From assembly GCA_030704615.1 (NCBI GenBank), contig CM060731.1:22196001-22260000 (forward strand): a stretch of 64,000 nucleotides of DNA, read 5' to 3'. Positions 7,845 through 40,935 of the stretch are shown in pieces. The translations under genes were made by a program, and so were the position numbers. This DNA is from Takakia lepidozioides. Taxonomy: Eukaryota; Plantae; Bryophyta. The notes beneath the pieces were generated by a model that ran no database searches, had not been told where the DNA came from, and saw nothing but the letters and a program-made list of their open reading frames with translations. The first letter of the stretch is position 1. Each line of letters starts with the position of its first letter.

Positions 7845-8796
7845 TTGGGCTTTCATCAGCTGGGTATGGCAATGGGTTACAAAACTCAAGGTCACGCCTG
7901 TTTTGGGAGATGTTGAGGGTCCTGCGTTATTTACAGCTTCAGCAGACAGACTCTCCGACATATATCTTGGAGAATGTGCCATTGATGGGTGATTCTCATG
8001 CCAAGGTGATGGCCAGTGTACATCAAGTGCGGTCTTGGCTTGGGTCAGCAGTGTTGCTGGATGCAGCTGCAGTAGGGTCACGGGCTCATCGCCCACGACT
8101 ATGGTGGACCAACTTGATGCCACATGCAATGCTCAAGTGTGCATTTGATGGGGTGCAGCGGCCACCAAACCTCACGGTTGATAGTATTTTGGACATAGGG
8201 AGGCAGTCTCAGCGTGTGAGACACGATGACCGATCACCTTTGGCAGTGGTCAATAAGGTGGGTCACCCATGAGCAGCATTGCCTACACTGCTCAGCTTTC
8301 CAGGATCTCATGCTTTCCGGGATGGTGGACCTGGCCTCTTGTGGGATAGCCAGTTGTAGCAATTAGTGGAGCCTAATGCTGACGAGCGCGAGTGGGCGAT
8401 GGGTTTTACCACTGGTACCACGACGGTGCCATATTTTTCTGAGGGATCACGTCGTCAGGTGTTGGGGCAAACAATGGATCTCAATTCCTTGACCTGGATT
8501 ATCAGCTTGGCTATGGCTGAGCAGCGCAGAGTATGGAGTACACTTCCCTTGATGGTCTTTCTGCCTACCGAGACGGTACAAGCAGCAAGTGGGGGCGAAC
8601 AGGTGAGGACCACGAGGTGTAGGCTGCATCCATGGCATACGTGGGAGGTGCTCGAGGTTCAGAGGGAGTTGGCAGCCAAGGCGGCGGTGATGGATGAGGT
8701 TAGGGATTTTTCTCGGGTTGAGGGATGATGAGGCAGGATGAGACATTGTCACTGACAGAGCAGGTAGTGGTTACTACTCAAGAGATTGCAGCATAA
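7832..8796 (+). pseudogene. DNMT3-type C5 cytosine methyltransferase, motifs IV-X (copy 1)
   Basis: GWPC (7832-7843), LFWEMLRVL, YILENV, VLLDAAAVGSRAHRPRLWWTNL, EPNADEREWAMGF, RRQVLGQTMD. Motifs I-III were lost at the inversion junction and there are internal stops. Confidence 0.88.
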
Positions 8797-11700
8797 CAAC
8801 CACGGGACGCGTCTTCTACCTCTAAGTCTGCTGGACTCAAAGTTGCAGTCACGGAGGACAACTAGGAGCCTGATGTTGGACCCATAGTCACCGGAGGAGA
8901 GAGACGACGTATATGGCAGTTCTTGAGGGCTTACAGGAACTGCTTTGCCTTCAGTTTGAAGGACTTGGGAGCACTGAAGGGTCAAGAGATTCGCATTGAA
9001 TTAGCTACTGACACGCCAATCTTTCGGAGACCTTATAGATACAGTGACATGGAAAGGTCCTTGATTCAGATGAGGACTCAGGACCTCTGGGAGGCTGGTT
9101 TGGTGGAGCTATCTGGTGGAGATTATGCTTCAGCCACAGTGATGCCAACCAAGAAGGATGTCTATGGCAATTGGACGGAGAGACGTATGTGCGGTGATTA
9201 CCGGCCTGTAAATCGTCAGACCAAGTCCGATAGGTATGCCATGCCAACACCAGAGGAGATCTTTGATGCCATTGGGCATGCCAAGGTCTTTAGCACTTTG
9301 GATTTACGATCCGGATATCACCAGTTGCCGATCAAGGAGGCGGATAAGCACAAGACGACATTCTGGGGGATCAATGAGCACGGGAATGATTGCCTATACC
9401 AGTGGCGGTTCTTACCATTTGGGCTTAAGAACGCTCCTGCAGAGTTTCAGAGAGTCATGGATAAGATTCTAGCAGGGGTGGAGTTTGCTCGGTGCTACAT
9501 AGATGACATCATCATCTTTAGTGCTACGGTGGAGGAGCATGAGAGACACCTTCAGGTGGTATTTGAGCGCTTGAGGGTGCACGGATTGAAGTTACATCCG
9601 AGGAAGTGCAAGTTTTTCCACAACCAGATTGAGTATCTGGGTCACATGATATATCCTGGAGGATTGGGGGTACAACAGACTAAGGTAGAGGCCATTGCAC
9701 AGATTCCACGCCCCACGGATGTGAGTCGAGTTCGAGCTTTTATGGGGTTGGCAAACTATTATAGACGGTTTGTCAAGGGATTTAGTGACATTGCAAAGGC
9801 TCTAACCAAGCTGACCAAGGTGGACCAGGAGTGGCAGTGGGAAGATGAGCAAGAACGAGCTTTCCAAGAGCTCAAGGCGAGGTTGACCTCGGCGCCCATC
9901 TTGAGACGACCTATTAGGGGGCGTCCTTTTCATCTGCATATAGATTGGAGCATGCTGGGGCTTGGAGCGGTGCTCACACAGGTGGATGATGAGGGAAGAG
10001 AGTTCGTAGTGGCTTATGCTAGCCACTCGAACAACGCTGCAGAGGCTAAGTATAGCTCATATGAGGGAGAGTGCTTAGCTGCAGTGTGGGCCGTGGCACA
10101 CTTCAGGTGTTATCTATACAACAATCTCTTCACCCTTGTCACGGATCACCAGCCACTCAAGTGGTTGATGGAGTCAGACAAGCTTACGGGGAAGCTTGCA
10201 TGGTGGGCACTCATACTTCAAGAGTATGACTTTCAGGTTGTGCATCGACCGGGTTTGGTCAATCGGGATGCGGATAGGTTGAGTCGCAATCCATGCACGA
10301 GCCAGCAGGATGCCACTAGAGCTTGGTGGCATGGTGAGACGGACGAGGAGATAGTGCCCGGATGGCATGCATCTGCATTTCTATGCATCTTGGCAGCGGA
10401 AGGCCAGGTTGGACCTACAACAGGGATGATTGTAGACCGAGTGTCTGAGGACCCTGAGGCCAGAAATGAGCAAGGTGGCGCCAAAGATATACATGAGGAT
10501 TCAGCTGTGTTGGACTATTTCCGCACTAGGGGCACGACAACCACTGTGACTGCCAAGGAGAGGGATCGGATCCTACAACGAGCCAAGAGGTTCAAGTGGG
10601 AGGGGACACACCTGCTCCGAGTGTGGGAAGATGGTCGAGTGAGGATTGTGCCTCACCCAACCCAGCGGGCACGGTTAGTGCGGCATGCCCATGATGAGTT
10701 GGGGCATTTTGGGATGCGACGCACTCATAGTCTACTGCAGGGGCAGTATTGATGGCGTGGTATGCACACAGAGGTATAACAATTTGTGGCTAGGTGCATG
10801 GTGTGTGACAGGGTGCGTGCTTCATTCAACGCCCCTACGCCACAATTGCACCTCTTCCGATCATGGGATTGGGCTACAGGTGGAGTCTTGACTTCGCAGG
10901 GCCGTTGCCATTGACCATGTGCCACAACAAGTACGTGTTGGTGATGGTGGAACACTTTTCCAAGTGGATCGAGTTGGTTCCATTGTCTGATAAGGCTAGT
11001 GAGGGAGTTGCGTATGCATTCTTGGATTGTGTACTTAGCCGATTCGATGCTCCAGCTGAGGTACTCACGGACCAAGGGAGAGAGTTATTGGGGGGAGTTT
11101 CAGGCGTTGTGTGACAAGGCCTTGGTAGACCACCGCACCACTTCTCGGGATCATCCTGAGGCCGATGGCTTGGCAAAGAGGGTTGTTCAGATAGTGAAGA
11201 GGGGTTTGCGCAAGTATGGCTTGCAGAAGGGACACCTAGGAGATTGGGACCTTCAGTTACCCTGGTTAGCCATGGGCTACAGGTTCAGGAAGCAAGCATC
11301 ACTTGCCTCCTTCTCACCATACTTTCTTCTCTTTGGCCGAGAGCCAGATTTGCCTTCATCCATTCGTAGAGAAGCTGCTACAGTTCTCAACCTTGACGAT
11401 CCGGATGTGTGGGCATGTGCATGTGGTCAGCGCGCGGAGTTGTTCAAGAAAGTCATGCCCATGGCTTTCGAGAACCTTGCCATTGCACAACATCGTGCTA
11501 CGTTGAGGTATGCTATCATACGTGGTGGGGGCTATCGTCCTGGGGTTCGGAGATTTCACCCTGGTGACTATGTTTATTTGCAGTAGACTGCTCCAATGAC
11601 CCTGGATGTGACTGCATGACGTGTTATTTTGAGGGTTCGAGAGGTATTGCCCTCAGGCATCTTGATCTTGGAGGGTCGGGATGGCATGACTTGGAAGGAC

Positions 11701-11931
11701 CATGTGCGTAATTGCGCGCCATGTCACCTTCCGAATATCGATGGCATGATTGACCCAAACTTGGCAGTGGTACCTACAAGTTTGAGGTGCATGTTGTGTG
11801 GGTCTGCTAGAGGGGCAGCCACCATGCTGGTGTGTGATCGATGCTCTAGAGGTTGGCATATAGGATGCTTGACTCCACCTCTTGAGATGGTTCCTGATGG
11901 GGATTGGTTATGTCCGCATTGCATTGGATAG
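8797..11931 (+). pseudogene. RT-RNaseH-integrase-PHD polyprotein of copy 1
   Basis: LPFGLKNAPAEFQR, YIDD, RNase H (DWSMLGLGAVL, EGECLA, TDHQPL), HHCC, SLDFAGP, TDQGRE, and a PHD C4HC3 finger CMLC...CDRC...HIGC...WLCPHC. Stops at 10750 and ~11584 plus frameshifts. Confidence 0.93.
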
Positions 11932-12188
11932 TGGGAATGGATACAACCATGGAAGGCTAACAAGAAATGCAAGGTCAAGCTACTAGGAGACCAACACACT
12001 AGATCCTGGCTCAAGTTCACAGATTGCAAGACGGCGACTAACGATGGGGCTACTCTTGTACCCGGCCTCTTGGTCTATAGAGTTTGAGTACAATAGGGAC
12101 AGTGATAAAGGACTTAGTACGGCTGTGGCTATTACATCTTGTAGCTATTTGGAGTTAGAGGGACCTAACCACCAGCTAGGGGGGCGAT

Positions 12189-12645
12189 TGTGGCAGACTA
12201 CTTTATTGTGCGTATATGTTGTGTGGTTTGGACAGCGATGTAGTTATGTAGCGAGGTGTATGCGCACGACAACTATCAAGTAAAGTTTACTAGTAGTGTG
12301 AAACTAGCCAATAAATAACTAGTTTTTATATATGACACTTGGGCTTGATCCAAGTGTCAACCCAGGGGTCAAGATATTTGTTGGCCCCTGGGCGTGGCTT
12401 ATCTTCACGGCGAACGCGCGGCGAGGTTCATCTCTCTCGAGTTGAGCCTCCCGCGTCGGCTATGGCGCGTGTACTGTTGATTCCCCTAAGCCTTGGGGGT
12501 GCAGTGGGCTTGATTCTTATTTTATGAGTGAAATGTTGGTTTGGTTTTGTGCATCTTTTCATTGTGGCAGACTACTTTATTGTGCGTATATGTTGTGTGG
12601 TTTGGACAACGATGTAGTTGTGTAGCGAGGTATATGCGCACGACA
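12189..12645 (+). repeat. 3' terminal A-B-A split direct repeat of copy 1
   Basis: A (83 bp, 12189-12271) and A' (12563-12645) differ at 3 positions. B (12274-12561) matches the 5' end. The block is preceded by the polypurine tract AGGGGGGCGA-T. Confidence 0.93.
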
Positions 12646-21730: not shown

Positions 21731-22864
21731 GTTCAAACCTTTCCAATGTTGTTTGTAATAAGACGAAAATTTCATTGACATATGCAAGTGGAACAATCGT
21801 TCTACAAATCCCAATTTATCTACAAGAGTTTGATGTAACTTCCAAAAGGCCTTGCATGGACTCAATCCTCATCCCTAATCATCATGATCTCTCCATCTAC
21901 CTCATCCATCATATTGAGATCAAGGATTTTCTCATCTTCTATGTGCATATTTCCAAGATGAGAGGAGAATCAGGCTGGTGTCATTTTTCGTTTTGGAGAA
22001 GTCCGCACCCTAACATTTTATCATTACAAATAGAGTGGCAAAGCTCAAGCTCAAAATATATTTAAACTAAGGATTGTGGGTAACTTGGATGCATCATTTA
22101 GATGGAGTGAGATCGGGCAATCACCGTCAAAGGGCTGTCCTCCTTTTCACCTGAAGAACCTTCACGTGTCTTGCTGCTCGAAGTCTTTTTCTTCCTACAA
22201 TAATGTAAAACTGATTTCGCAACCACATATATATCTTTAGGCTGTCACCTATAGGTGATACTACCAAAGCTAAATGTCGCAAGGGTATCATGATTCAAGG
22301 AGACGTCGTGCACCTAAGCATCGTGCCACAACATACATCGTTGTCCATCACATATTCTAAGCATACAATCCTAGAAAGCTATGCCACAATGATAAGAGAT
22401 GAGAAATGAGAGACACTTGAACTAAATCCAAGTGTTAAATACAAATAACTAGTTTTATTCTAGTTAGTTTCACACTATGTTTATTTAGCTTGACAGCTGT
22501 CGTGCGCATACATATCGCTACACAACTACATCGCTGTCCAAACCACACCATACATATATGCACAATAAAGTAGTCTGCCACAATCGCCCCCCTAGCTGGT
22601 GGATAGGTCCCTCTAACTCCAGATAGCTACAAGATGTAATAGCCACAGCCGTACTAAGTCCTCTATCACTGTCCCTGTTGTACTCAAACTCTGTAGACCA
22701 AGAGGCCGGGTACAAGAGTAGCCCCATCGTTAGTCGTCGTCTTGCAATCTGTGAACTTGAGCCAGAATCTCGTGTGTTCAAGGTCTCCTAGTAGCTTGGC
22801 CTTGCATTTATTGTTAGTCTCCCATGGTTGTATCCACTCCCACTATCCAATGCAATGTGGACAT

Positions 22865-25800
22865 TGTTAGAAGTCAGCTCAGATTTAGTTAGCTAGGGTT
22901 CTGTTAGGGTTTTTTGACGGCTAGGGATAGTTCTACCAGAAGGTTCCAGCCACCAGAAGTTTCTAGAGAACTCATGTAGGATTTAAGAGAAAGGCTGAGG
23001 CAATGCCCAACACTTCTTCTAGCATTTTGGATGTGCTATCCTAGTAGATTGCAGAGAGAGGAGGAGGAGAAGTCCAGCATCTACTTTTGTAAGTTCTTTT
23101 CTTTTGCAGTAAGGAGCATTCTTGTTAGGACTGACACTTCTTGTTAGTACTAACTCTTTGGTTGGTTTAGGCTGTCAGTTTTTGTACTGCTGCTTGTGCT
23201 AGAAGCTATCTGTCAATATCACTAGGAGGTAGAGGACAGGTCTAGTTTCCAACAGGTTATGGGCCCACAAGACGTTACAACTACTTGGACAGTTGAGCCA
23301 CTGGATGGCAACAACTATAAGAGTTGGATCTACACGATGCAGCTCCTACTCTCTTCAAAGAGCCTATGGTCAATAGTGGCTAAAAAGCCTTCAGAGGATA
23401 ACCTGAAGGAGGAGAGATGGATCCAAAAGAATGAGCTTGCAATGGCAGCTCTAGTCACAAACATGAGATCAAAGCTGGTAGTTTTGGTAAGGAATCTTAC
23501 AACTGCTCATGAGGTCTGGCAGACCTTAAGTGAGGTGTATGAGGCAGATGCGATGGGGAAAGCATATGTCCTATGGAAACAGCTCATGGACTTGAGAATG
23601 AGAGAAGGTGAGAGTGTAGCCATTCACATTGCCACTGTTAAAGCCATGTGTCTGGAGATAATTGATGCGGGAGAACCCATGACTGAATCACTTCAGATCA
23701 TGACCTTGTTTGGCACCTTGCCAAAGAGTTATGACATGGTGGAAACCGCATTGGCTACTCATGGTAAGAGTAGACTGAGTTGGAAGTATGTCACTTCACA
23801 ACTCATCATGGAAGAAAGCAAGCTGACTAGGGGTAGCTCAAGTATGGACAATGCCCTGACGGCTACTTCCATCAAGAAAGATGGAGCATGTTTCCGATGC
23901 GGCAAATTTGGGCATTTCCAGAAGGACTGCAAGGTGAAGATTGACAAGCCCAAGAAGGACAAGTGGAGACCAAGGAAAGGGAAGTCTGTACATGCACATG
24001 TCGCTGACATGGGCAACGACAGTGAAGTTCACCTGTTTATGGCAGATGCAGCTTACAGTCGTGATGAAGACTACCTGCTGACTACTGAAGGAGAACACTG
24101 TGGAGATGAGTGGTATTTGGACTCTGGAGCTACTAACCACATGTGTGGGAGGAAGGAGTTGTTTCACAACTTGAAACCCATTCAGCCTAGGAGCGTAAAG
24201 ATGGGCAACAAGACGTTTTCTGTAAGTACGATGATGGGAGAAATCCCTGTCAACTTTATCAGAAAAGAGAGTAAGGTTACCCGTTGTACCCTTCAGAATG
24301 TCCTATATGTGCCAGACTTGGCAAAGAATCTGATCTCTGTTAGTACCTTGGATGAGCTTGGGTATGATGTCATTTTCAAAAACAATGCTTGCAGCATCCA
24401 GAAGGGCAACGAGGAACTCTGCTATGGAGTGAAGGAGCAGAGACTCTACAAGCTTTTGAGTACATCTGGAACTCAGGAGGAGGCCAATGTTGGGGACACA
24501 ATGGACACTGCACCATTGTGGCATAGAAGGTTGGGTCACTTGGGGACACAAGCGATCAAGGATCTTCAAAAGTTGGCGTTGGGATTGAATGTGGACTGGT
24601 CACATGAGCTACAGTTCTGTGAAGGATGTGCTAAAGGGAAACAGCACAAGTCATCAATGCCCAAGGAATCTGCCACAAGAGCCAAGGAGAGGCTGGAGTT
24701 GATACACACAGATGTGTGTGGCCCATGAAGACAACATCACTGGGAGGATCTAGGTACTTTGTCACCTTCACTGATGACATGAGTAGAAAGACTTTCTTAT
24801 ATCCCTTGAGAGAGAAAGGTCAAGTGCTGCAGGTCTTTAAGCAATTTGTGCATGAAGTAGAAAACCAGCTGGACCTCAAAGTCAAGGTTCTGAGGAGCGA
24901 TGGTGGGGGAGAATTCCTAAATCAGGAATTCAAAAACTATCTTGCTGAGAAAGGCATAAAGAGCCAAGTAACAGCGAGGGACAGTCCAGCCCAGAATGGA
25001 GTGGCAGAGAGATTAAACAGAACACTGGTTGAGAAGGCTAGATGTATGCTACAGACCTCAGGCCTTGGACCAGAGTTTTGGGGAGAGGCGATCAGCACTG
25101 CCACCTATCTGAAAAATTTGAGTCCCACGCGAGCTTTGAAAGACATGATTCCAGAGGAGGCGTGGAGTGGGAAGAAGCCAAACCTGAAGCATCTAAGAGT
25201 TTTTGGTTGTGCTGCTTATGCATTGATACCTGACGGGCAAAGGAGCAAGTTGGATGCCAAGTCAGAAAGATGTATCTTCATTGGGTATGATCTGGGATGC
25301 AAGGGGTACAAGGTCTACAATCCTAGAACCAAGAGGTCAATCAGGAGTAGAGATGTCCTGTTTGATGAGGATAATTTTGGGAAGGAGACAAAGCCCAAGG
25401 ACCTGTCCGTTCCTGTGATAATCCCTGATGTGGGAGAAAAAAAAGAGGAACAACCAGTAGTAAAGGTTTACACTCGAAGGGAGAAGGTGGCGAAGAAACC
25501 AGAAGAGGATGAAGATTCTGAAGATCGGGATCCTATTGACAAGGATGGGGGGCCTAGAAGGTCAGGAAGGATCAGCAACCCCCCAGAAAGGTTTGGAGCT
25601 AATGTGGCAGAAGGACTGACTGGTCTGACTATGGATAACATAGGGCAGATGGAAAGTTGTTTCCATGCCCTTGATGATGCAGAGGAGCCAGCCACCCTCA
25701 ATGACGCTTTGGCAAGGGATGATGCCAATGAGTGGGAGGGAGCTGTACTAGAGGAGATGAAATCTCTAAAAGAAAACCAGACTTGGGAGCTGGTAACACT

Positions 25801-27395
25801 GCCTGGTGGTAGAAAGGCGGTAGATTGCAAGTGGGTTTTCAAAGTGAAAAGAGGACCCAACAATGAGATAGTGAAGTACAAGGCCAGACTTGTGGCCAGA
25901 GGCTTCACACAGACTGCAGGGCTTGACTACAATGAAACTTTTGCCCCAGTGGCAAAGTTCACCTCCATCCGATGTTTACTGGCATTGGCAGCGAAGCATG
26001 ACTGGGAGATAGAACACATGGACGTGAAGACTGCATTCTTGAATGGGGATCTCCAGGAGGAGATCTACATGAAACAACCAGAAGGCTTCCAAGAAGGTGA
26101 TAAGGTGTGTCGGCTCAAGAAATCGTTATATGGACTCAAACAGGCATCGAGGACATGGTATGAGAAGATCAATAGCTACTTGACAGGCCAAGGTTTTGTA
26201 AGGAGTACAGCTGATCAGAGCATTTACTACATGACATCAGGTGTCATGATAATAGCACTCTATGTGGATGACCTGCTACTGATCAGCGACAACAAGGATA
26301 CCATGCGCAGGCAGAAGCATGATTTGAGTGAAACCTTTGAGATGGTTGATCTTGGAGCCGTTAACTACCTACTTGGAATTCAGATTCTGAGGGACAGGAA
26401 GGCGAGAACTATAAAGTTGAGCCAAGAGAGGTATGTCAGGAATGTTGTTGCGAAGTTTGGTATGCAGGACTGCAAACCAGCACCAACACCATTGGAAACC
26501 GGCTGCAAGCTGAGTAAGGAAATGGAGCCAAAATCTCCAAGTGAGATTGAGGAAATGGCTAAGGTTCCATATCAGCAAGCCATATCTGCCTACTGCTTGG
26601 TAATGAGTGGAGGTGCTGTGAGCTGGAGCAGCAAAAGACAGCAGACCACTGCTCTATCCTCGACTGAGTCAGAGTATATGGCTCTGACTCATGCAGCTAA
26701 AGAAGCCATTTGGATTCGAAGGCTTCTTGGTGAACTTGGCTTCAGTCAAGAACAGCCAACGAAAGTGCATGCTGATAACAGGAGCAGCATTGAGCTGAGC
26801 AAGAATCCTGTTCATCACGCCCGGACCAAGCACATAGATATCAAACATCATTTCATTAGAGAAATGATTGGTTTGGAGATTGAGTTGGTTTACTGTAGGA
26901 CTGAGGACATGGCAGCTGATGCACTCACAAAGGCTCTATCCAAAGAAAAGCATTCTAGATGCATGGAACTGATTGGGTTAAGCCTCAATCCTCGCTGAGT
27001 GGGAGTGTTAGAAGTCAGCTCAGATTTAGTTAGCTAGGGTTCTGTTAGGGTTTTTTGACGGCTAGGGATAGTTCTACCAGAAGGTTCCAGCCACCAGAAG
27101 TTTCTAGAGAACTCATGTAGGATTTAAGAGAAAGGCTGAGGCAATGCCCAGCACTTCTTCTAGCATTTTGGATGTGCTATCCTAGTAGATTGCAGAGAGA
27201 GGAGGAGGAGAAGTCCAGCATCTACTTTTGTAAGTTCTTTTCTTTTGCAGTAAGGAGCATTCTTGTTAGGACTGACACTTCTTGTTAGTACTAACTCTTT
27301 GGTTGGTTTAGGCTGTCAGTTTTTGTACTGCTGCTTGTGCTAGAAGCTATCTGTCAATATCACTAGGAGGTAGAGGACAGGTCTAGTTTCCAACA
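22865..27395 (+). mobile_element. Ty1/copia LTR retrotransposon (half-tRNA-Met-primed type), very recent but defective
   Basis: 390-bp LTRs at 22865-23254 and 27006-27395 (TG...CA, one mismatch seen), TSD GACAT, PBS GGTTATGGGCCCA at 23255, PPT GAGTGGGAG. Inserted into the PHD finger of copy 2. Confidence 0.97.
23259..26998 (+). pseudogene. Copia Gag-PR-IN-RT-RH polyprotein with a frameshift and an internal deletion
   Basis: CFRCGKFGHFQKDC knuckle, WYLDSGATNH, WHRRLGH, HTDVCGP (frameshift at ~24725), RSDGGGEF, YKARLVARGF, LYVDD. PYQQAI is joined directly to SAYCLVMSGGAVSW, removing the RT end and the DADWA RNase H start. Confidence 0.93.
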
Positions 27396-27400: not shown

Positions 27401-30400
27401 AACCAATCATCCGGAACCATCTCAAGAAGTGGAGTCAAGCATCCCATATGCCAACCTCTAGAGCATCGATCACACACCAGCATGGTGGCTGCCCCTCTAG
27501 CAGACCCACACAACATGCACCTCAAACTTGCAGATACCACTGCCAGGTTTGGGTCAATCGTGCCATCGACATTCGGAAGGTGACATGGCGCACAATTACG
27601 CACATGGTCCTTCCAAGTTATGCCATCCCGACCCTCCAAGACCAAGACGCCTGAGGGTAAGACCTCTCGAACCCTCAAAATAACACGTCCTGCAGTCACA
27701 TCCAAGGTCGTAGGAGCAGTTTGCTGCAGATAGACGTAGTCACTAGGGTTGAATCTCCGAGCCCCAGGACGATAGCCCCCACCACGTATGGTAGCATACC
27801 TCAACGTATCACGGTGTTGTGCAATGGCAAGGTTCTTGAAAGCCATGGGCATGACTTTCTTGAACAACTCTGCACGCTGCTCACATGCACGTCCCCACAC
27901 GTCCGGATCGTCAAGATTAAGAACTGTAGCAGCTTCTCTGCGAATGGATGTAGGCAAATCCGGCTCTCGGCCAAAGAGAAGAAAGTATGGTGAGAAGGAG
28001 GCAAGTGATGCTTGCTTGCTGAACCTGTAGCCCATGGCTAACCAGGGTAACTGAAGGTCCCAATCTCCTAGGTGTCCATTCTGCAAGCCATACTTGCGCA
28101 AACCCCTCTTTACTGTCTGAACCACTCTCTCTGCGGAGCCATCGGCCTCAGGATGATCCCGAGAAGTGGTGCGGTGGTCTATCAAGGCCTTATCACACAA
28201 AGCCTGAAACTCCCCCAAGAACTCTCTCCCTTGGTCCGTGAGTACCTCAGCTGGAGCACCGAATTGGCTAAGCACACAATCCAAGAATGCATACGCAACT
28301 CCCTCACTAGCCTTATCAGGCAATGGAACCAACTCAATCCACTTGGAGAAGTGCTCGACCATCACCAACACGTACTTGTTGTGGCGCATGGTCAGTGGCA
28401 ACGGCCCTGCGAAGTCAAGACTCCACCTGTAGCCCAATCCCATGATCGGAAGAGGGTGCAATTGTGGAGTAGGGGCATTGAATGAAGCACGCACCCTGTC
28501 ACACACCATGCACCTAGCTACAAATTGTTGCACCTCTGTGTGCATACCACGCCACCAATACTGCCCCTGCAGTAGGCTATGAGTGCGTCGCACTCCAAAA
28601 TGCCCCAACTCCTCGTGGGCATGCCGCACTAACCGTGCCCGCTGTGTTGGGTGAGGCACAATCCTCACTCGACCATCCTCCCACACTCGGAGTAGGTGTG
28701 TCCCCTCCCACTTGAACCTCTTGGCTCGTTGTAGGATCCGATCCCTCTCCTTGGCAGTCACAGTGGCTGCAGTGTCTCCAGTGCGGAGGTAGTCCAACAC
28801 AACTGAATCCTCATGTATATCTTTGGCGCCACCTTGCTCATTGCTGGCCTCAGGGTCCTCAGACACTTGACCTACAGTCATCCCTGTTGCAGGTCCAACT
28901 TGGCCTTCCGCTGCCAAGATACACAGAAATGCAGATGCATGCCATCCGGGCACCATCTCCTCGTCCGTCTCACCATGCCACCGAGCTCCAGTGTCATCCT
29001 GTTGGCTCGTGCATGGATTGCGACTCAACCCATCTGCATTGCGATTGACCACACTCGGTCGATGCACAACATGAAAGTCATATTCTTGAAGGATGAGTGC
29101 CCACCGTGCAAGCTTCCCCGTAAGCTTGTCTGACTCCATCAACCACTTGAGTGGTTCGTGATCCGTGACAAGGGTGAAGAGATTGCCGTATAGATAGCAC
29201 CTGAAGTGTGCCACGGCCCACACTGCAGCTAAGCATTCTCCCTCATATGAGCTATACTTAGACTCTGCAACGTTGTTTGAACGGCTAGCATAAGCCACTA
29301 CAAACTCTCTTCCCTCATCATCCACCTGTGTGAGCACCGCTCCAAGCCCCAGCATGCTCCAATCTGTATGCAGCTGAAAAAGACGCCCCATAATAGGCCG
29401 TCTCAAGATGGGCGCCGAGGTCAACCTCGCCTTGAGCTCTTGAAAAGCTTGTTCTTGCTCATCTTCCCACTGCCACTCCTGGTCCACCTTGGTCAGCTTG
29501 GTTAGAGCCTTTGCAATGGCACTAAATCCCTTAACAAACCGTCTATAATAGTTTGCTAACCCCATGAAAGCTCGAACTCGGCTCACATCCGTGGGGCGTG
29601 GAACCTGTGCAATGGACTCTACCTTAGTCTGCTGTACCCCCAATCCTCCAGGATATATCATGTGACCCAGATACTCAATCTGGTTGTGGAAAAACTTGCA
29701 CTTTCCCGGATGTAACTTCAATCCGTGCGCCCTCAAGCGCTCAAATACCCCCTGAAGGTGTCTCTCATGCTCCTCCACCGTAGCACTAAAGATGATGATG
29801 TCATCTATGTAGCACCGAGCAAACTCCACCCCTGCTAGAATCATGTCCATGACTCTTTGAAACTCAGCAGGAGCGTTTTTAAGCCCAAATGGTAAGAACC
29901 GCCACTGGTATAGGAAATCCTTCCCGTGCTCATTGATCCCCACAATGCCGTCTTTTGCTTATCCGCCTCCTTGATCGGCAACTGGTGATATCCGGATCGT
30001 AAATCCAACGTGCTAAAGACCTTGGCATGCCCAATGGCATTAAAGATCTCCTCTGGTGTCGGCATAGCATACCTATCGGACTTGGTCTGACGATTTACAG
30101 GCCGGTAATCACCGCACATACGTCTCTCCGTCCAATTGGCAAAGACATCCTTCTTGGCTGGCATCAATGTGGCTGAAGCATACTCTCCCCCAGATAGCTC
30201 CACCAAACCAGCCTCCCAAAGGTCATGAGTTCTCATCTGAATCAAGGACCTCTCCATGTCACTGTATCTATAGGGTCTCCGAAAGATTGGCGTGTCAGTA
30301 GCCAATTCAATGCGAATCTCTTGACCCTTCAGTGCTCCTAAGTCCTTCAAACTGAAGGCAAAGCAGTTCCTGTAAGCCCTCAAGAACCGCCGTATACGTC

Positions 30401-30509
30401 GTCTCTCTCCTCCGGTGACTATAGGTCCAACATCAGGCTCCCAGTTGTCCTCCGTGACTGCAACCTTGAGTCCAGCAGGCTTAGAGGTAGAAGACGCGTC
30501 TCGTGGTTG
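27401..30509 (-). pseudogene. RT-RNaseH-integrase-PHD of copy 2 (PHD tail resumes at 22843-22864)
   Basis: ORFs 29841-30383 and 27340-29943 (one frameshift at ~29940): YIDD, TDWS, HAHEELGH/CMVC, SLDFAGP, TDQGREF, AERVVQ, and the PHD split by the copia insertion. Confidence 0.95.
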
Positions 30510-30842
30510 CTATGCTGCAACCTCTTGAGTAGTGACCACTGCCTCCTCTGTCTGTGACAATGTCTCACCCTGCCCCATCATCCCATCTTTGAGGACCTCC
30601 TCAACCCGAGAAAAATCCCCAACCTGATCCATCACCGCCGTCTTGGCTGCCAACTCCTTATGAACCTCGAGCACCTCCCACGTGTGCCATGGATGCGGCC
30701 TGCACCTCGTGGTCCCCACTTGCTCGCCCCCACTCGCTGCCTGTACCGTCTCGGTAGGCAGGGAGACCATGAAGGGAAGTGTACTTCGCACTCTGCGCTG
30801 CTCAGCCATAGCCAAGCTGATAATCCAGGTCAAGCAATTGAG

Positions 30843-31750
30843 ATCCATTGCTTGCCCCAACACCTGACGACGTGATGCCTCAGAAAGAGATGGCACCGCC
30901 GTGGTACCAGTGGTAAAACCCATTGCCCGCTCGCGCTCGTTAGCATTGGGCTCCACTAATTGTTGCAACTGGCTATCCCACAAGAGGCCAGGTCCACCAT
31001 CCCGAAAAGCATGGGATCCTGGGAAGCTGAGCAGTGTAGGTAATGTTGCTCGTGGTTGACCCACCCTGTTGACCACTGCCAAAGGCGAACGGTCATCGTG
31101 TCTCACACGTTGAGACTGCCTCCCTGTGTCCAAAATGCTATCCACTGTGAGGTGTGCTGGCCGCTGCACCCATCAAATGCACGCTTGAGCAGTGCGGGTG
31201 GCATCAAGTTAGTCCACCATAGCCGTGGACGATGAGCCCGTGACCCCACTGCAGCTGCATCCAGCAACACTGCTGACCCAAGCCACGACCGGACTTGATA
31301 CACACAGGCCATCACCCTGGCCCGAGAATCGCCCATCAGTGGCACATTCTCCAAGATGTATGCTGGAGATACAGCTTGATGAAGCTGCAAGTGGCGCAAA
31401 ACCCGCACCATCTCCCAAAACAGACCCGACCTTGAGTCTCGCAATCCATTGCCATGCCCGGCTGATGAATGCCCTTGGCAGGGCCAACCTGCCACTACCA
31501 GATCAATGGAGCCAACTTGCTCCAAATCCTGCGCCCCTAGCAACGAAATGTCTGCTGGCAAGGCTTGTTGGTATCCACAAACTGCAGACACTAGCAATAA
31601 ATCAGGGTATTGCTGTACCAACTGAGCAACATGGCGCAGTGAGACGCATCGTGCAGTCTCATCCCTCTCCACATACAGGTAACGTCGAACTCGTATACCT
31701 GCTTGCAGCACTGCAACCAATCCAGTGCTGACAAGTCCAGAAGGCATATG
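30843..31750 (-). pseudogene. DNMT3-type C5 cytosine methyltransferase domain within the polyprotein of copy 2
   Basis: Linear motif order: I ICLLDL[deletion]STGLVAV; II YLYVERD; III ADIS; IV IDLVVAGWPCQGHS (GWPC at 31478-31489); V GLRDSRSGLFWE; VI YILENV; VIII AHRPRLWWTNL; IX ERERAMGF; X RRQVLGQAMD. Frameshifts at ~31732 and ~31170. Confidence 0.93.
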
Positions 31751-31879
31751 CCTTCATCCGGGCACTGCCACACAAGAGGTGTAGTGTCCAATGGCGACAA
31801 CTGAGGTGGTCCTGGTGCAATCACTGCACTCTCCTCCTCTCTTGATGGTACGAAAGCGTCCACCCAGGCTTGTTGCACC

Positions 31880-34705
31880 CGTCCATCAGCAGCCTGCTAC
31901 AAATCTTTGCCCGTACCCCACAATGGAGTGTGAGCAACCATGGCAAGCAACTCCACCGTACCATGCATGTCATCCTGCTCTGCTGGAGGTGGCACATCCT
32001 TTGCATGGGCATTGCCTGCCAGCAACTCTCCAGGCCAACTAACTGCAGCCGTAAAGGCGGCTAGTGTTGGCATCTTGCCCCGCCGGGCAGCCGCAATACC
32101 CCCAATGAATGTCACAGGGAGCTGTGCACGACGACCATCCCTTGACTGCCAACCAGGCCTGTAGGATGCTGACTCCTCCCAAAAGTCCAGGGTGAAGCCC
32201 ATGGGGTATAACACTGCCCCACCAATGAGGACATCGTAAGAGACCGCGTCTGTCACAATGGCCTTGGCTCGCATCACTGAGCCATCTGTAGGGTGATTCG
32301 GCTGTAGTCCAATGGCCAACTCACGCCGTGTCATGCCCCAAGCCTGCTCTGATCCTCCCAGAGATGTCTGTATCTGGAAAGGACAAGGCTCCATATCCGC
32401 CTCCATGAGGCCCAAACCTGCAATAGCAGCTCTGCCCAACATCAGTGGCTAAGCTCCCGAGTCCAACAAGACCCGCAGTGGCCGGTACTTCTTGCCTGCC
32501 GGTCCACTCAAAGTGAAAATGTCATCCTGGTTGTCTAACAAGACAACTCCAGGTGTCACCATGGCGCGCTCAAAGGCTGGCCTAGCTGGCAGCTCCGTCA
32601 ACCTGGCAGCTGCAGCTTGCCATGGCGCAGCCGTGGCAGTCTTGACCCTCAAATCCGAGGATCCCCCTGACACTACACCTTCCACTAACTCTGCAGAAGA
32701 TGAAGTGACCTCCCCACTCTCACAGAGTGTTGCTGCTAGTCTGAACACTGCAACTGGTCTTACCCCCGGCGTCGCAATCATGGTTGCCGAGAACAGTGGG
32801 GCTTGACACACAGAGGTGGCTGCCCCCAATAACACACCGGCTGCACTAGCCTTGGTAGCAGGTGTCAGTGCTGCACGTGTAGCTCTCCCCAATGGCATAG
32901 TAACCTCCACCTCGGTAACAGTCGGCGCGAGAACTAGGTGCCATGGATGGCGTCGACTCAGTCTCCGCCAATGTGAATGACTGAGGAAGCCTCGCCTGAC
33001 GGCTTGCCTCCCCACGCTGTGGATCCAATTCCACCTCTGCACCTCGTGGCTCAGGAACTCGTGCTGCTCCTCGAGTCACGGCTGCATCAGACTCCACCTG
33101 CACTAGTGGTAGTGCTGCTCCGCACATGAATCCCATGCCTCCCATATCTCCTCCCTTAGGCGCAGGAGGTGGACCATCTCGTCTGGGAGCCGGTACCGCC
33201 TGAGCTGTAGCCATGGCAGCGAGCTTCTGCTCTAGCTGCTGAAGCCGGTTGGCCATGCCTTGGTCAACACCCTGACCTCCGCGTCCTTGGCCATGTTGCG
33301 CTTGCCCTTGGCCTGCGCCTCGTGCCCGGCCACCTCGTCCTCTTTGGGCTGGTCCACCTCGCCCCCGGCCACCATTGTTCCCTTGGAACTGGCCTGGGCG
33401 CAACTCAGGATGCAAGTCATAACACTGGGCATCTCCATGCCCATACTTGCCACAATGCCCACACTGCAACTGTGTAGGCTGTGCTTGTGCCAGCCTTTTG
33501 CCACTCTCTAGGCAATCTCTCTTGACATGGGGTCCTCCACATGTCCAACATATCACCCCTGGTTGCTGTTGGCCTGCAAAAGATGCCACGGGCCTCTGCA
33601 CCTGAGGTCCCCTGTAAGCTCCATGGAACTTGGGTTGGGAAACCTTGCCCCCCTGACCACGCTGTTGGGTAGTCCCTTGTGCCTGTGGGCTGGCAGCTGC
33701 GCCTCGTGCAGGCATGTCTTTGCCAAATCCAATGGTAACAACTCGCTCCTCCACCATGTTGAGCTCAATCCGCTCAGCCAACAGAAACACATCTGCTAAT
33801 GTGGGTTGGGCTACTTGTAACAGGGTTGCATCCCGCACCCTTCTCCTGAGCTCCTTGTACAAAATTCCATACCAGAACTGGATTGCCTGAGCTTCAGTAA
33901 CCCCTTGGGTCACACTTATCAAGCGCCTCATACGAGTGTAGGCCTCTCGCAAGCTCTCACTGGGTTTGCGCTGGAAGTCTTGCAAACTTCGCAGCTTCTC
34001 TGTCCGTACACCTTGGTAGTTCCTCCGCTACTCCTGAAAAAACTCCACCACCGGGTTGAATCTAGGCACATGTGTTGCAGTCGTGGAAGGAGGAGTAGTA
34101 GCAGCTTTTGAACTGGTACCACCTGCAGAAGTACCGGCACTACTTGTTCCACTACTAGTGCTGGCAGTGGGAGATATTGGTACTGATGCAGCTACTGGTC
34201 GCGTCGTGCCTCGAGTAATGGAGACGTAGTCAGGTGACCAATACATCCTCCACTCCTCAATCTCTGCTTCATGTCCTCGCCTGAACTCGTGGTAATCGTC
34301 CATAGGCGGGCCTTCCAAATGCTGGAACAGTCCCTTCTACGCCATGAATGGGGTGAATAGCTGTGGATTACGCATCTGCTGCAAATCACACCAGCTGTCA
34401 AACTCCTGGATAAAGTCATCCAACTCGATTGTGCCCACAGCTCCAGAGTACCTACGAGGCCCCTTGGTAGCTCCATACATCTCCTCCATGTCGTCCCACA
34501 ACAATGGCGAATGAAACTGCACACCTGTTGATGAAGCCTCCGAGTCTGTGTCTGACTCTGCACTAGTTGAGGGTGGAGGTGAAGGTGGTCTGAAACGAAC
34601 ACCTCGTCTGGTGAACCCACTCTCATTGCTACTGCCTGTAGTCATACTCCCCTCAGAACCCCTGGGTAACTCCGTGATGACACTCACAATGTGCACCTCC
34701 CCCAC
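31880..34705 (-). pseudogene. Gag (two CCHC knuckles) and aspartic protease of copy 2
   Basis: PRRYSGAVGTIELDDFI, FQRKPSESLREAYTR, CWTCGGPHVKRDC, CGHCGKYGHGDAQC, VLLDSGA, YDVLIG. Interrupted by single TAG stops and one frameshift at ~32925. Confidence 0.88.
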
Positions 34706-35225
34706 GTGACACTATAAGGCTCTAGTACTAATTCTAATAGTGACACGGGTGGGCACCTGTTGCAGTTTAAGAGTCATATCCCAATGACTCAGGGCACCTG
34801 CACCTGCATCCACCGCAAGAACTCCTATGGTTGGCTGGTCATCAACCCAGTCTCACCATAGAAGAAACACTGGTGGTCTTGCTAGTCATCACTCCAGCCT
34901 CACCACCGACAGCATACTCTAGGATTGACCGGTGATCAAATCCGGCCTAATCCCTATGAAAGCAAGCGCCCACACAAAACCAACATGGCGCACAGTCAAG
35001 CATGCAGGTGTTGGGGGGGATCCAAACACAAGAAATCAAAACATCAACACCCCCACACCAAAATCCATCTGCAATGCAGATCCTGTAGAATATCCCAGCC
35101 CAAAACCCCGGACTGACTGGCCTCCACCAAGAGAGGCTTTGGCAACTACAAGTACAAAGTAATGAAAATAGTAAAGAGATGGAGGGGAAGAATAGAAGCC
35201 CGACCAAGCAAGATCTAATCCTGAT

Positions 35226-36058
35226 CTATGCTATCAACTGCCAGACTTCTCTCAAAGTGCCTCGCTCTGCATGATGGTAAGGTGTAGGCGGTATATCTAT
35301 GTCCAGAAACCTGCCACTAACCTTGTCCCAAGCTACAGTAGCTCGCTCTAACCAACCCTCCTCCTCTTTCTGCCATGTAGAGACAAAGCAATACTCCCCT
35401 ATCTCCCGCTCACTGAACACTAAAGAAAATAAAGATAGGGTGTGACAGTCTCTCAACTCGAAAGCTTTGAGACGGTTGCGGGTGTCCTCATTGCGAATGA
35501 CTGCATCTCCTTCAAGCAAAACAAACTTGTCATTGCCAATGAACCCCCGCTCGTGGTTGCCTTGTGCAGAGCGTGTCCCGCTGCAACCATGTCTGATTGC
35601 ACAAACTTGTGTAGCTCCTGCTCCTCTGCTCCAGTACACCACGGCCTTGTGGCTGAACACCTTGGTCCCCGGGGCTGTCTTTGGCTGTGTTCCAAGCCTA
35701 GCTTTCACCCACTTTGGTATTTCACCTACAGCTGTAGAACTGTTGGATCCAGCAGAGTTCTGACTATCCAAAGCGATATTGAGGCCCTCAACGCCAACTA
35801 CAGCAGTTTGTTGTCTACTGCTAATGCCTGACTCCCAGTATGCAATCAACTCGTCCAACTGTTCTCCACTCAAATCAGTCTGAGTTCCTTGGGAAACATA
35901 AATCTTGTCCCCTTATGTGCACAGGCTAAGAGAAGAGACCTGCCCTTCAATGACGTCCTCATTTCCCCCAGCCATACAAGGAGTACATCCCCAGATTTAT
36001 CTCTCATGTAGACCAGAACAGGTTCTAAAAATAGAATTGTGGATCTTTCATCACTCAC
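35226..36058 (-). CDS. Extra ORF of unknown function upstream of gag in copy 2 (62 aa + 215 aa, probably one frameshifted ORF)
   Basis: Two abutting ORFs in element sense, preceded by a TTTTTAG acceptor-like site at ~36062. No recognisable motif. Confidence 0.45.
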
Positions 36059-36447
36059 ACTCTAAAAATTCCATAGATTTTTAGCAGAGTCCCAAAAACA
36101 AAAACCAGATAGGTAGATTTCCCCTTTCTGTAGGTCCTTGCGCAAGTTTTGGGTCAAACGGCCTTGGTAGGCCAAAGTTATGGCCAAACAGGCTCTATCT
36201 AATTTAAATTAGATCAAAGAACGAATTTCTTTTAATTTTTCACACCCAAAACGTTCTCTCCATTAAAAACTGTTCCCACGTTTTTTTTTTTTTTTCACTG
36301 CAAGTTCCCTAAGAATTCCTTGGACTCATAAACCGCAAGAACAATTGGTCCTGAAAGAAATGGCCTCACATTAATCACAAACTCAGTATGCTCAGGAGAG
36401 AGAGGAAGGAGGCCACAGAGCGCACAGACAGGAAGAAGAAGGGAGAG

Positions 36448-38252: not shown

Positions 38253-38607
38253 TGATAAGAAAGCTAAGAACACACTGTTCACACAAGAAACAACATGAAT
38301 CCAGCAGCATCACTCTTTAAGATAATAGTCGAGCCAGGGGCACCCCAAGCTATGGGGACTCCACCCCACAACAACCTATACTCCCTACATAAGCACACTC
38401 AGATTCTAAAGTGTGAAGGAGCTCGGTCGCGCAGGCTCAACTCGAGAGAGATGAGCTGCGCGACTGAGGCTCTCGTGAAGATAAGATGGTTCAGGTGTCA
38501 AGCTCAAACTTGACACCTGACTTAACACTTGAACTAAATCCAAGTGTTAAATACAAATAACTAGTTTTATTCTAGTTAGTTTCACACTATGTTTATTTAA
38601 CTTGACA
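38253..38607 (-). repeat. 5' terminal repeat B of copy 2 (355 bp, TGTCA...TCA)
   Basis: The first ~83 bp are near-identical to 22413-22495, and it shares the TTATCTTCACG and CTCATCTCTCTCGAGTTGAGCC blocks with copy 1 B. Confidence 0.88.
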
Positions 38608-40935
38608 AAGCCCTCAACACACTCTCTTTCAATAACTAGTGTTATGGAGGTGAGAGAGGCTTATGGAGGCTCAACTACAAGAAGATGAGCCCTCCTCAAC
38701 CCTCACAAGGGGAAAACCCATCCCCATGTCCCAAGTGAGGTTTGATACCTCACTTGGCATATGAGACCAAATGAAGTCCCAACACACAAAATATAAATAT
38801 AAATATCTAAAATGTCCTAGTTAACTAGAAGTAGGTAATTCTAGTTAACCATGACTAAAATCATGACAGCTGTCGTGCACCTAAGTATCGTGCCACAACA
38901 TACATCGTTGTCCATCACACATTCTAAGCATACAGTCCTAGAAAGTTATGCCACAATCGCCCCCCTAGCTGGTGATTAGGTCCCTCTAACACTGGATAGC
39001 CGACAAGTATCTATCCCAATAAGATCATCGCTTAGTCTTCAATCGCACAAGTCCCAGCATCTAAAGTCGATAGATCAAGAGGCCGGGTGCAAAAGTAGCC
39101 CCATCATTAGTCGCCTTGGACTGCAATCCATGATCTTCAGTTGAGTATCCATGGCATTGAAGCCCCACTAGCTAGACCTTGGATCACTTGTTAGCCTCAC
39201 CATTGCCATGCCCACTACCTCTGTCCAAGGCATCGTGAACACAACCACTCTCCGCTAGGAACCTCCTCAAGTGGCGGTGTCAAACATCCCATTTGCCACC
39301 CCCTTGAGCATTTATCACACACCAACATGGTTGCGGCACCACCAGCATGCCCACATAGCATGCAACGCAACCCTGCAGATACCACTGCAAGGTTGGGATC
39401 TATCCTCCCATCCACATGTAGGATGTGACATGGCTCACAATTGCGCACATGATCATTCCATATCATCCATCTTGACCTTCTAGAATCAACATTCCTGAAA
39501 GCAACACCTCCCTGACCCTTAGAATCACATGTCTTGTTGTGACATCCAAGGTCGTAGATACTGTCTGCTGCAGGTATACATAGTCCCCAGGGTTGAATCT
39601 CCGAACACCCGGTCGATATCCGCCTCCACGTATGGTGGCATACCTCAATGTGTCTCGGTGTTGGGCAATAGCAAGGTTCTCAAAAGCCATAGGCATGACT
39701 CTCTTCAACAACTTTGCCCGCTAGTCATATGCTCGTGTCCACACATCCGGATCATCAAGGTCAAGGACTACTGCAGCCTCCCTACAAATAGATGCAGGCA
39801 AATCTGGTTCTCGGCCGAAGAGAAGAAGGTAAGGTGAGAATGAGGCAAGTGATGTTTGCTTGCTAAACTTGTAGCCCATAGCCAACCAAGGTAGCTGAAG
39901 GTCCCAATCCCCTAAGTGTCCCTTCTACAAGCCATATTTGCGCAAGCCTCTCTTGACTATCTGAACAACTCTCTCTCCGCCAAGCCATCAGCCTCGGGAT
40001 GATCCCAAGAAGTAGTGCGGTGGTCTATCAAGGCTTGCTCACACAAAGCCTGAAACTCCCCCAAGAACTCTCTCCCCTGGTCCGTGAGTACCTCGGGTGG
40101 AGCACCGAATCGGCTAAGAACTCGATCTAAGAATGCATACGCAGCCCCCTTACTTGCCTTGTCAGGCAATGCCACCAGTTCAATCCATTTGGAGAAGTGT
40201 TCAACCATCACCAGCACATACTTATTATGGCAAATCGTTAGTGGCAATGGGCCTGCAAAGTCAAGGCTCCAATGATAGCCCAAACCCATAATGGGTAAAG
40301 GCTGCAATTGTGGAGTAGGGGCGTCGAAAGAAGCCCACACTCTATCACACACCATGCATCTTGTCACTAACTGTTGCATATCCGTGTGCATGCCCCGTCA
40401 CCAGTACTGCCCTTGCAACAAACTATGAGTGCGCCGCACCCCAAAATGTCCCAACTCCTCATGGGCATGGTGTACCAATCGCGTTCGTTGTGTTGGATGA
40501 GGCACAATCCTCACTCGTCCATCCGCCCATACACGGAGTAGGTGAGTCCCCTTCCACTTGAACCTCTTGGCTCGTTGTAGGATCCGATCTCTCTTCTTCG
40601 CAGTCACACTGGCCAGCTAAGAAGGATATTTATGGCAATTGGACAGAAAGAAGGATGTGTGGGGACTATCGTCGTGTGAACCATCAGACTAAGTCCGATA
40701 GATATGTCATGTCAACTTCAGAGGAAATCTTTGATGCCATTGGGCATGCGAAGGTGTTTAGCATATTGGACTTACGATTGGGTTTGATCACCAGTTGCCA
40801 ATCAAAGAGGCTGACAAGCAAAACACGACATTCCGGGGGATTGACCAGCATAGGAATAATTGTTTGTACCAATGGCGGTTCCTTCCGTTTGGGTTGAAGA
40901 ATGCTCCTACAGAGTTTCAGAGGGTCATGGATAGG

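Follow-up and report, generated by a model that had tools for sequence, protein, structure and literature searches.

The window analysed here, a 64,000-nt stretch of the Takakia lepidozioides genome (GCA_030704615.1, CM060731.1:22,196,001-22,260,000), contains three copies, numbered 1-3, of a Gypsy retrotransposon family carrying a DNMT3-like cytosine methyltransferase (DNMT). Copy 2, on the minus strand, has the layout Gag-protease-DNMT-reverse transcriptase (RT)-RNase H-integrase-PHD. We consider it probable that this disabled copy represents an element whose first ORF (ORF1) encodes Gag, protease and the methyltransferase and is closed by a conserved stop, that infrequent readthrough of this stop likely yields RT, RNase H, integrase and PHD, and that production and packaging of the methyltransferase would match the capsid protein in level, with new cDNA as its likely substrate. 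DNMT-carrying retrotransposons are thereby extended from one charophyte alga to land plants, including the model Marchantia, where genetics and existing methylation mutants make it possible to test why a transposon should retain a silencing enzyme. New relative to the earlier note are the stop, which is not damage, and the split terminal repeats, which are accompanied by 4-bp duplications and no visible tRNA primer site. The features of copy 2 are as follows.

34490..36130, minus strand: long 5′ leader and N-terminal Gag extension, delimited by contig depth
32936..34489, minus strand: Gag, 53-56% identical to the Marchantia ORF1 proteins P0005 and P0237
33550 and 33463, minus strand: two zinc-knuckle-like motifs of Gag, CWTCGG and CGHCGK, respectively
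32104..32574, minus strand: aspartic protease, with LLDSGA at 32469-32452 and a premature stop at 32451
30783..31760, minus strand: DNMT3-like C5 cytosine methyltransferase domain (PF00145), motifs I-X in linear order
31746-31732, 31729-31712, 31489-31472 and 31354-31343, minus strand: DNMT motifs CLLDL, STGLVA, GWPCQG and LENV, respectively
31234-31208, 30938-30915 and 30860-30846, minus strand: DNMT motifs HRPRLWWTN, ERERAMGF and LGQAM, respectively
30504..30512, minus strand: conserved in-frame stop TAG CAA CCA closing ORF1 (Gag-protease-DNMT), position and context kept in relatives
29632..30260, minus strand: RT (PF00078), with YIDD at 29811-29800 and a frameshift near 29940
29059..29478, minus strand: RNase H (PF17917, E 2e-34)
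27919..28668, minus strand: DDE integrase with H2C2 zinc finger (PF17921, PF00665)
27401..27525, minus strand: PHD finger at the integrase C-terminus (PF00628, E 2.7e-7), interrupted near its end by a Copia element
22865..27395, plus strand: young Copia element within copy 2, foreign to the DNMT family (LTRs 99.7% identical; 5-bp target duplication GACAT)
22305..22864, minus strand: 3′ end of copy 2, comprising the remaining PHD, 3′ UTR, purine tract and then repeats
22584-22498, 22495-22391 and 22390-22305, minus strand: 3′ repeats B1, shortened A and B2, respectively

The earlier note had placed the element at 27401-34705, which is too small: with the leader traced by depth and the 3′ end lying past the Copia element, copy 2 spans approximately 22305-36100. 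In run X1 of the host, summed contig depth is 0.3-0.8 million up to 36128, approximately 5,700 beyond it and then approximately 900. A candidate element start, TGTCACG at 34711, was rejected because depth continues upstream, and comparison with the A repeats found no 5′ A repeat at the leader end of copy 2. Besides the lesions listed, Gag contains stops at 34339 and 34030 and a frame change near 32930, and the DNMT contains frameshifts at approximately 31735 (within motif I) and 31170. Copy 2 is a disabled copy; the earlier note had described both copies 1 and 2 as disabled. The PHD finger following the integrase is a domain that the first reading had not listed. The features of copies 1 and 3 are as follows.

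6563..12645, plus strand: copy 1, flanked by TTCT/TCCT
6563-6731 and 6844-7848: 5′ part of copy 1, namely repeat A and an inverted Gag-protease piece, respectively
7829-8533, plus strand: DNMT of copy 1, motifs IV-X
8794, plus strand: junction TAA CAA CCA of copy 1, followed by RT, RNase H, integrase and PHD
12187-12271, 12276-12561 and 12561-12645: 3′ repeats B, A and B of copy 1, respectively
38433..40933, minus strand: copy 3 fragments (integrase-PHD, B, an A-like repeat and an RT piece in inverted orientation), sharing 78-82% identity with copies 1 and 2
47867-48401: further RT piece of copy 3, beyond an inserted chromodomain Gypsy element

Motifs IV-X, which copy 1 had been said to retain, are indeed kept at 7832-8476, but motif IV lies on a rearrangement breakpoint adjoining the inverted Gag-protease piece. 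No part of the DNMT is present in the copy 3 fragments.

A search with PF00145 detected the DNMT in copy 2 (E 2.2e-13; 50.8 bits against a cut-off of 22) and in copy 1 (E 1.9e-7), and the motifs of copy 2, all located by position, follow a linear order between protease and RT, in agreement with the first reading. The proposed likeness to DNMT3 was upheld by both profile and fold, which place the domain nearer to DNMT3 than to DRM or bacterial enzymes. The best PDB match of the copy 2 domain is DNMT3A, and a family profile (73 members) scores DNMT3A, DRM2 and HhaI at 99.9, 50 and 39.5 bits, respectively. In an alignment-based model of an unbroken relative (pLDDT 97), the predicted fold ranks DNMT3A/B at the top (Foldseek E 3e-19; Z 29.9, rmsd 2.5, 271 aligned), compared with 25.8 for the best non-DNMT3 row, and model residues 1-324 are colinear with DNMT3A 632-909, that is, in non-permuted order. 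Host DNMT3 enzymes (animal DNMT3A/B and Physcomitrium DNMT3b; PMC6453930) thus share the linear motif order and offer the closest solved fold, whereas the DNMT of the window family is 20-26% identical to animal DNMT3A/B, contains no PWWP or ADD domain, is intronless and resides inside a retroelement ORF. The ESM Atlas returned generic PF00145 clusters only, and no close viral source was seen in the 4 of 64 parts of IMG/VR scanned, where the best matches are partial (E at least 2e-16).

Relatives that are approximately 66-72% identical were found in Marchantia, Calypogeia and Sphagnum, the copy 2 DNMT being 72% identical to Marchantia P0005, and more distant ones in Klebsormidium, Closterium and chlorophytes (Haematococcus and Scenedesmus). 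Marchantia encodes several full-length Gag-protease-DNMT ORFs of 1278-1281 aa, for which the only annotation is "hypothetical" or "CCHC-domain" protein. Within the chlorophyte-side clade, a single ORF holds the DNMT between RNase H and integrase. In quick trees without bootstrap, the clades that include the Klebsormidium nitens elements comprise 24 rows for RT (SH-aLRT 96) and 54 rows for DNMT (SH-aLRT 99); the outgroups of the DNMT tree are phage or metagenome sequences, and host DNMT3, DRM and MET1 are absent from it. KFL_013780020 of K. nitens, a protease-DNMT with 38% identity to the DNMT of the window, falls into this DNMT clade and KFL_013780010 (RT) into the RT clade; the two probably represent the KnitGypsy-Dnmt3 element of de Mendoza et al. 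2018 (PMC5890265). As described there, that element resembles the window family in its Gypsy domains, in a Dnmt3-like domain that lacks introns, is not permuted and evolves under purifying selection, and in its DIRS-like split repeats (A-coding-B-A-B). It differs in that its DNMT is placed in the Pol ORF with RT, whereas a conserved stop separates the two in the window family; in that PHD, readthrough and target duplications are not mentioned in the text of PMC5890265 consulted; and in that the window lineage extends to land plants and also to chlorophytes, where the DNMT follows RNase H. A K. nitens record, P0474, ends directly after the DNMT, so KnitGypsy-Dnmt3 may share the stop. Whereas the earlier note had drawn a parallel with the Klebsormidium element, the trees and repeat structure suggest that the window family is most likely the KnitGypsy-Dnmt3 lineage, i.e. 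its land-plant extension and not a new kind of element. Because the DNMT occurs in both land plants and chlorophytes, it is not a Klebsormidium-specific capture. In line with the earlier note, a literature search, outside which most subscription papers lay, found no paper on a characterised land-plant family.

The proposal that the DNMT is a family trait is supported among 80 metagenome loci, themselves ascertained by their DNMT: where both domains are on the contig, the protease leads directly into RT in none of them. In one run of the host, DNMT, RT and integrase have similar summed contig depths. DNMT and RT have descended together (Mantel r 0.74, p 0.001; 59 elements), and the tree of the DNMT shares 20 of the 35 strong splits of RT. 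Among 82 loci obtained by a pol alignment search, most of which are distant Gypsy elements, only L161 carries the DNMT, and a single-sequence pol scan of genome and viral contigs gave no match. Loci L243-L303 were excluded from all analyses. The DNMT is under purifying selection, with dN/dS of 0.12-0.24 in informative pairs: 0.12 for both L056/L060 and L059/L060, and 0.24 (CI 0.15-0.39) between the window copies, whose RT-RNase H gives 0.34. Several decayed pairs of the peat-moss type give 0.55-0.82, at times above RT (0.29), and dS is saturated across hosts.

These values bear on the idea that the DNMT plays no part in methylation, being either a passenger picked up by the element or a module that binds nucleic acid without catalysis. 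One chlorophyte-side member (L171/L174) has lost the DNMT, which is therefore dispensable in the wider clade, and the Klebsormidium Gypsy domain produced no methylation in yeast, a result its authors judged inconclusive, while the related, DIRS-borne SymbioDIRS-Dnmt3 domains methylate CG there (PMC5890265). Against the idea stand the dN/dS values of the informative pairs and the retention of catalytic and SAM-binding residues among lineages down to approximately 35-50% identity, the catalytic Cys being present in 60 of 61 near-full-length domains and the motif VI Glu in 57 of 60; we regard it as very improbable.

The stop at 30512-30510 was considered as a lesion and rejected, as it is conserved across the family. 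A stop followed by CAR was found in 49 of 53 anchored rows (35 TAG and 14 TAA), the other four being mis-anchored or deleted, and TAG-CAR-YY is conserved across lineages of saturated divergence. TAGCA is the sole invariant run in 69 nt when five lineages are compared. L161, which was found via pol, has the DNMT followed by TAG CAA TCA, and the Marchantia ORF1 proteins terminate at the corresponding place. The readthrough consensus of TMV is UAG-CAR-YYA (PMC3159437); this context occurs in frame in window copy 2, L001, L056, L059, L060, L074 and L161, the full YYA being present in only 7 of 53 rows, and the peat-moss type has CAA CCC and then ATG. Judged by this context, the conserved stop is likely leaky and of the readthrough type. 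As described for TMV, MuLV and SIRE1 (PMC3159437, PMC2194720), an in-frame UAG in a CAR-YY context sets the ratio of two products, but in the window family it follows protease and DNMT and is not at a gag/pol or pol/env boundary. A leaky stop here would mean that methyltransferase greatly outnumbers RT, an unusual stoichiometry.

With the same architecture, the second ORF (ORF2) could instead be expressed by splicing or reinitiation, as has been suggested for Ogre elements. Reinitiation is made possible by a Met at codon 3-5 after the stop in the peat-moss type, L059 and L074 (codon 5 in the latter two), and RNA structure 3′ of the stop, which showed no consistent signal (z from +0.8 to -3.3), also leaves room for these routes. 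However, ORF2 continues the frame of ORF1 in all lineages checked, the CAR codon does not vary, and a nearby Met is missing from the window, L001 and L060, the first in-frame Met lying at codon 85 in the window and beyond the first 110 codons in L060. One 2173-nt contig, from a run only guessed to be RNA and hence a weak witness, spans the stop without a joint. Splicing or reinitiation therefore appears quite unlikely as the route to ORF2.

Under the favoured readthrough model, the DNMT, being in the frame of Gag, would be made in bulk at the level of Gag, and low-frequency readthrough would supply RT-RNase H-integrase-PHD at a lower level. The shared reading frame strengthens the case for packaging with Gag. 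The element protease would release the DNMT from the polyprotein, and the enzyme, if catalytically active in the particle, would methylate the element's new cDNA, probably giving the new copy the mark of protected, host-like DNA. The PHD finger might direct the integrase towards nucleosomes whose H3 tail is unmodified; the best PDB matches of the copy 1 PHD are CHD4, PHF12, KDM5A/B, ATXR5 and PHF21A.

The enzyme might instead act chiefly on chromatin, its excess, made with Gag, methylating the insertion site, sister copies or host DNA in trans and thereby tempering the element or shaping the host methylome. The resemblance of the integrase PHD to H3-tail readers fits such a role; in animal DNMT3, H3-tail reading is performed by the ADD domain. 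The DNMT is also not fused in frame to RT, which weakens the argument of the Klebsormidium authors for action in cis, based on the ORF shared with RT (PMC5890265, peer-review file). On the other side, the chlorophyte-side arrangement, with the DNMT flanked by RNase H and integrase in the same ORF, points to a role in the particle or integration complex, and C-to-T decay in host context gives no hint of an extra activity. We consider action chiefly on chromatin unlikely. No self-methylation footprint of the element was found either: C-to-T rates do not differ between CG and CHG, and CpG depletion proved unspecific, since its CpG observed/expected ratio (0.46-0.57) lies between those of the neighbouring Copia (0.25) and Gypsy (0.88) elements.

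Copy 1 and several relatives are bounded by split repeats and not by ordinary LTRs, in the arrangement A-coding-B-A-B (window copy 1, L036, L037 and L039/L049) or A-coding-B only (four loci). The left end is A and the right end is B, and the identical LTRs that define Ty3/Gypsy elements are thus absent. The family is Gypsy by its domains and RT (order protease-RT-RNase H-integrase, with a DDE integrase) and not by a canonical LTR layout. SymbioDIRS-Dnmt3, as described in PMC5890265, likewise carries a Dnmt3-like domain between A-coding-B-A-B repeats, but DIRS elements use a tyrosine recombinase, whereas the window element encodes a DDE integrase and is accompanied by 4-bp target duplications. 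Repeat B is abundant among host contigs, but the A type of copy 1 is rare. By eye, neither TGG nor a primer-like sequence follows A in any of seven loci. The non-identical ends suggest a replication route outside the standard LTR model and may explain the absence of this lineage from LTR-based surveys. Tentatively, one may picture an unrecognised Gypsy lineage as old as the green plants, with DNMT3 and PHD acquired before land plants arose and with non-identical ends lacking a tRNA primer, in which, in land plants, a leaky stop would load particles with methyltransferase at capsid level and which, where very abundant, could supply its own cDNA and host chromatin with de novo methylation from a second, mobile source.

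The 4-bp target duplication is exact at seven of nine two-ended loci (six of eight independent sites), with one mismatch in each of the other two; window copy 1 also shows one mismatch (TTCT/TCCT). The non-chromovirus Gypsy lineages Phygy and Selgy (Neumann et al. 2019, PMC6317226), compared by description only in the case of Phygy, also have non-seed-plant hosts and 4-bp duplications. Phygy is described there with an NCGN target and a primer site for tRNA-Trp, and no additional domain is given for it, whereas the window family has NCGN at none of eight independent sites and no tRNA primer site after A. Full relatives of the window family measure 8.6-9.9 kb, compared with the average of 8.6 kb given for Phygy.

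The domains encoded by copy 2 of the Gypsy element (27401–34705, minus strand) follow one another as Gag, a protease with the motif LLDSGA, a C5 cytosine methyltransferase (DNMT), RT, RNase H, an integrase, and a PHD finger. All DNMT motifs named in the earlier note were located in this copy, in the linear order claimed, and copy 1 (6563–12645, plus strand) likewise retains motifs IV–X. The element of copy 2 is larger than proposed, with a leader reaching ~36100 (from contig depth) and a 3′ tail that runs on past a Copia insertion to 22305. This copy is dead, as had been claimed, with frameshifts near 32930, 31735, 31170, and 29940; in addition, stop codons lie at 34339, 34030, 32451, and 31899. 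The 5′ part of copy 1 is gone through rearrangement; an inverted Gag-protease piece and an inverted part of terminal repeat A lie at 6731–7848, and at the junction between the inverted piece and DNMT motif IV the two alignments overlap by ~20 bp. Copy 3 (~38433–48401) is scrambled and contains no part of the DNMT. The following elements interrupt the copies:

22865–27395, young Copia, splitting the PHD end of copy 2
40935–47866, chromodomain-type Gypsy inserted in the copy 3 RT, its 731-bp LTRs being 97.8% identical

The Copia is near-intact, with 99.7% identical LTRs and a 5-bp duplication (GACAT), and the CpG observed/expected ratio of the chromodomain-type Gypsy is 0.88.

The proposal that the DNMT is a family trait was borne out by the order Gag-PR-DNMT-RT-RH-INT-PHD (PR, protease; RH, RNase H; INT, integrase) in 80 metagenome loci where the contig suffices, the exceptions being copies carrying deletions and a few distant matches; all 80 were ascertained via the DNMT and are neither independent nor unbiased, and ~65, to judge from the protein clusters that they share with records from Sphagnum, represent one peat-moss-type (Sphagnum-like) family. 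Two lines of evidence with less bias point the same way: in X1, one sequencing run of the host, summed contig depth (which is not copy number) was 0.5–1.2 million for the DNMT, 0.8–1.1 million for RT, and 1.2–1.3 million for the integrase, the next host gene having ~900, and metagenome locus L161, retrieved by pol alone, has the DNMT. The 1848-aa polyprotein of L171/L174 (chlorophyte side) lacks the DNMT, which counts against its universality. The window's breaks are absent from many X1 contigs. Of the 45 longer proteins matched by the DNMT, those from Marchantia, Calypogeia, and Sphagnum rank first (up to 73% identity), and one Marchantia cluster includes several full-length ORFs of 1278–1281 aa. 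L161 (1–9285) is a complete family element on a circularly overlapping contig in a public cyanobacterial MAG, most likely as eukaryotic contamination; Gypsy contigs are present in many other prokaryote MAGs.

A DNMT3-type rather than DRM-type enzyme had been claimed, and the family profile agrees, scoring 99.9 bits for DNMT3A, 50–61 for DRM-type enzymes, and 39.5 for HhaI. With the predicted structure of an unbroken relative (pLDDT 97), DNMT3A/B ranked first in Foldseek and in VIA-align (Z 29.9, rmsd 2.5, 271 aligned; best other row, 25.8). Catalytic residues are retained in most decayed copies and in all four unbroken domains checked. Membership in the DNMT3 clade is putative and rests on similarity in sequence and modelled fold.

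Just after the DNMT, both copy 2 (TAG CAA CCA, 30512) and copy 1 (TAA CAA CCA, 8794) have a stop codon in frame, and the same junction reads TAG CAA CCA in L001, TAG CAA TCA in L056, L074, and L161, TAG CAG TTA in L059 and L060, and TAG CAA CCC in the peat-moss type. A stop plus CAR was found in 49 of 53 anchored rows, the exceptions being two window rows and L068, which are mis-anchored, and L028, which lacks the region; across these loci, CARYY follows TAG at 115 of 8366 places. UAG-CAR-YYA is the TMV readthrough consensus (PMC3159437, PMC2194720). The conserved stop makes Gag-PR-DNMT the content of ORF1, and ORF2 most likely arises by readthrough. Since a Met lies close to the stop in some lineages, production of ORF2 by reinitiation is a possible alternative. 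Through ORF1, the DNMT would be produced at the Gag level. In the Klebsormidium nitens Gypsy element, according to the 2018 paper (PMC5890265), DNMT and RT are in one frame, whereas a stop separates them in the window family; some algal-side records also have both in one frame.

The DNMT is under purifying selection, with a dN/dS between window copies of 0.24 (CI 0.15–0.39) against 0.34 for RT-RH. Two pairs of unbroken relatives gave a DNMT value of 0.12, and decayed peat-moss-type pairs gave 0.55–0.82 (RT below DNMT in two of these), a rise expected after insertion; dS across hosts is saturated. Quick trees of RT and DNMT agreed (59 elements; Mantel r 0.74), and the RT tree grouped the window copies with Calypogeia, Marchantia, and the peat-moss type, then Coleochaete, within a clade including Closterium and Klebsormidium. 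In a large sister clade (protein records P0035, P0043, P0445, and relatives; named members Haematococcus and Scenedesmus), the DNMT comes after RNase H and ahead of the integrase; among the 150 best representative matches, it follows RT or RH in 59. The window pol is 70% identical to P0047, a transcriptome protein from Coleochaete scutata that is sister to the land-plant copies, indicating transcription of this family in a charophyte. The K. nitens genes KFL_013780020 (protease-DNMT) and KFL_013780010 (RT) have consecutive locus tags and contigs of equal length. The simplest reading of these sequences would be that green plants captured the DNMT once, long ago, and that the elements have since inherited it, rather than a Klebsormidium-only event; because the branching order is not exactly that of the host tree, paralogy or transfer is possible.

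Copy 1 has the layout A-coding-B-A-B (A and B, split terminal repeats), which PMC5890265 gives for the Klebsormidium element; it also occurs in L036, L037, and L039/L049, with A-coding-B in four other loci. The repeat units begin with TG and finish with CA, and a purine tract lies upstream of B1; the sequence following A shows no tRNA primer site. Duplications of 4 bp flank all nine loci with both ends (exact in seven). Given these duplications and the split ends, the integrase seems to insert a molecule whose two ends appear to differ. One possible intermediate would be a circle with two repeats that opens where B meets A, and A-coding-B might form by B-B recombination. At 22305–22584 in copy 2, the first B resembles that of copy 1 (91%), and the A start (99%) and second B (95%) resemble those of copy 3, a sequence mosaic suggesting that subfamilies have exchanged sequence at the B/A junction.

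The particle would most likely hold many DNMT copies, which the protease would free and which may methylate the cDNA before or during integration, and the PHD on the integrase may read nucleosomes; its closest solved relatives are fingers that read unmodified H3 tails. The main rival is that the DNMT acts in trans. Base composition of the element bears no self-methylation footprint, and the Klebsormidium DNMT had no activity in yeast, a result termed inconclusive by its authors (PMC5890265). The DNMT-bearing Gypsy element in the window is real, and such elements were already known from that paper, the only one on them found in the literature searched, whose available text mentions neither Marchantia nor PHD.

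Among neighbouring genes, a PsaF-like photosystem I gene (36392–37050) lies directly upstream of the copy 2 leader; its reading frame is broken near 36700, where contigs from other runs skip 2 bases, and its top scores are to four PDB sequences, some of them from moss. A phospholipase A1 gene (14825–17246) has its best matches in Sphagnum (53–54%), with seed plants at 45–52%. The host indicated by these genes is a land plant outside the seed plants, most likely a bryophyte and less probably a lycophyte or fern. A PPR-repeat gene or pseudogene with ~300-bp repeats occupies 3800–5800.
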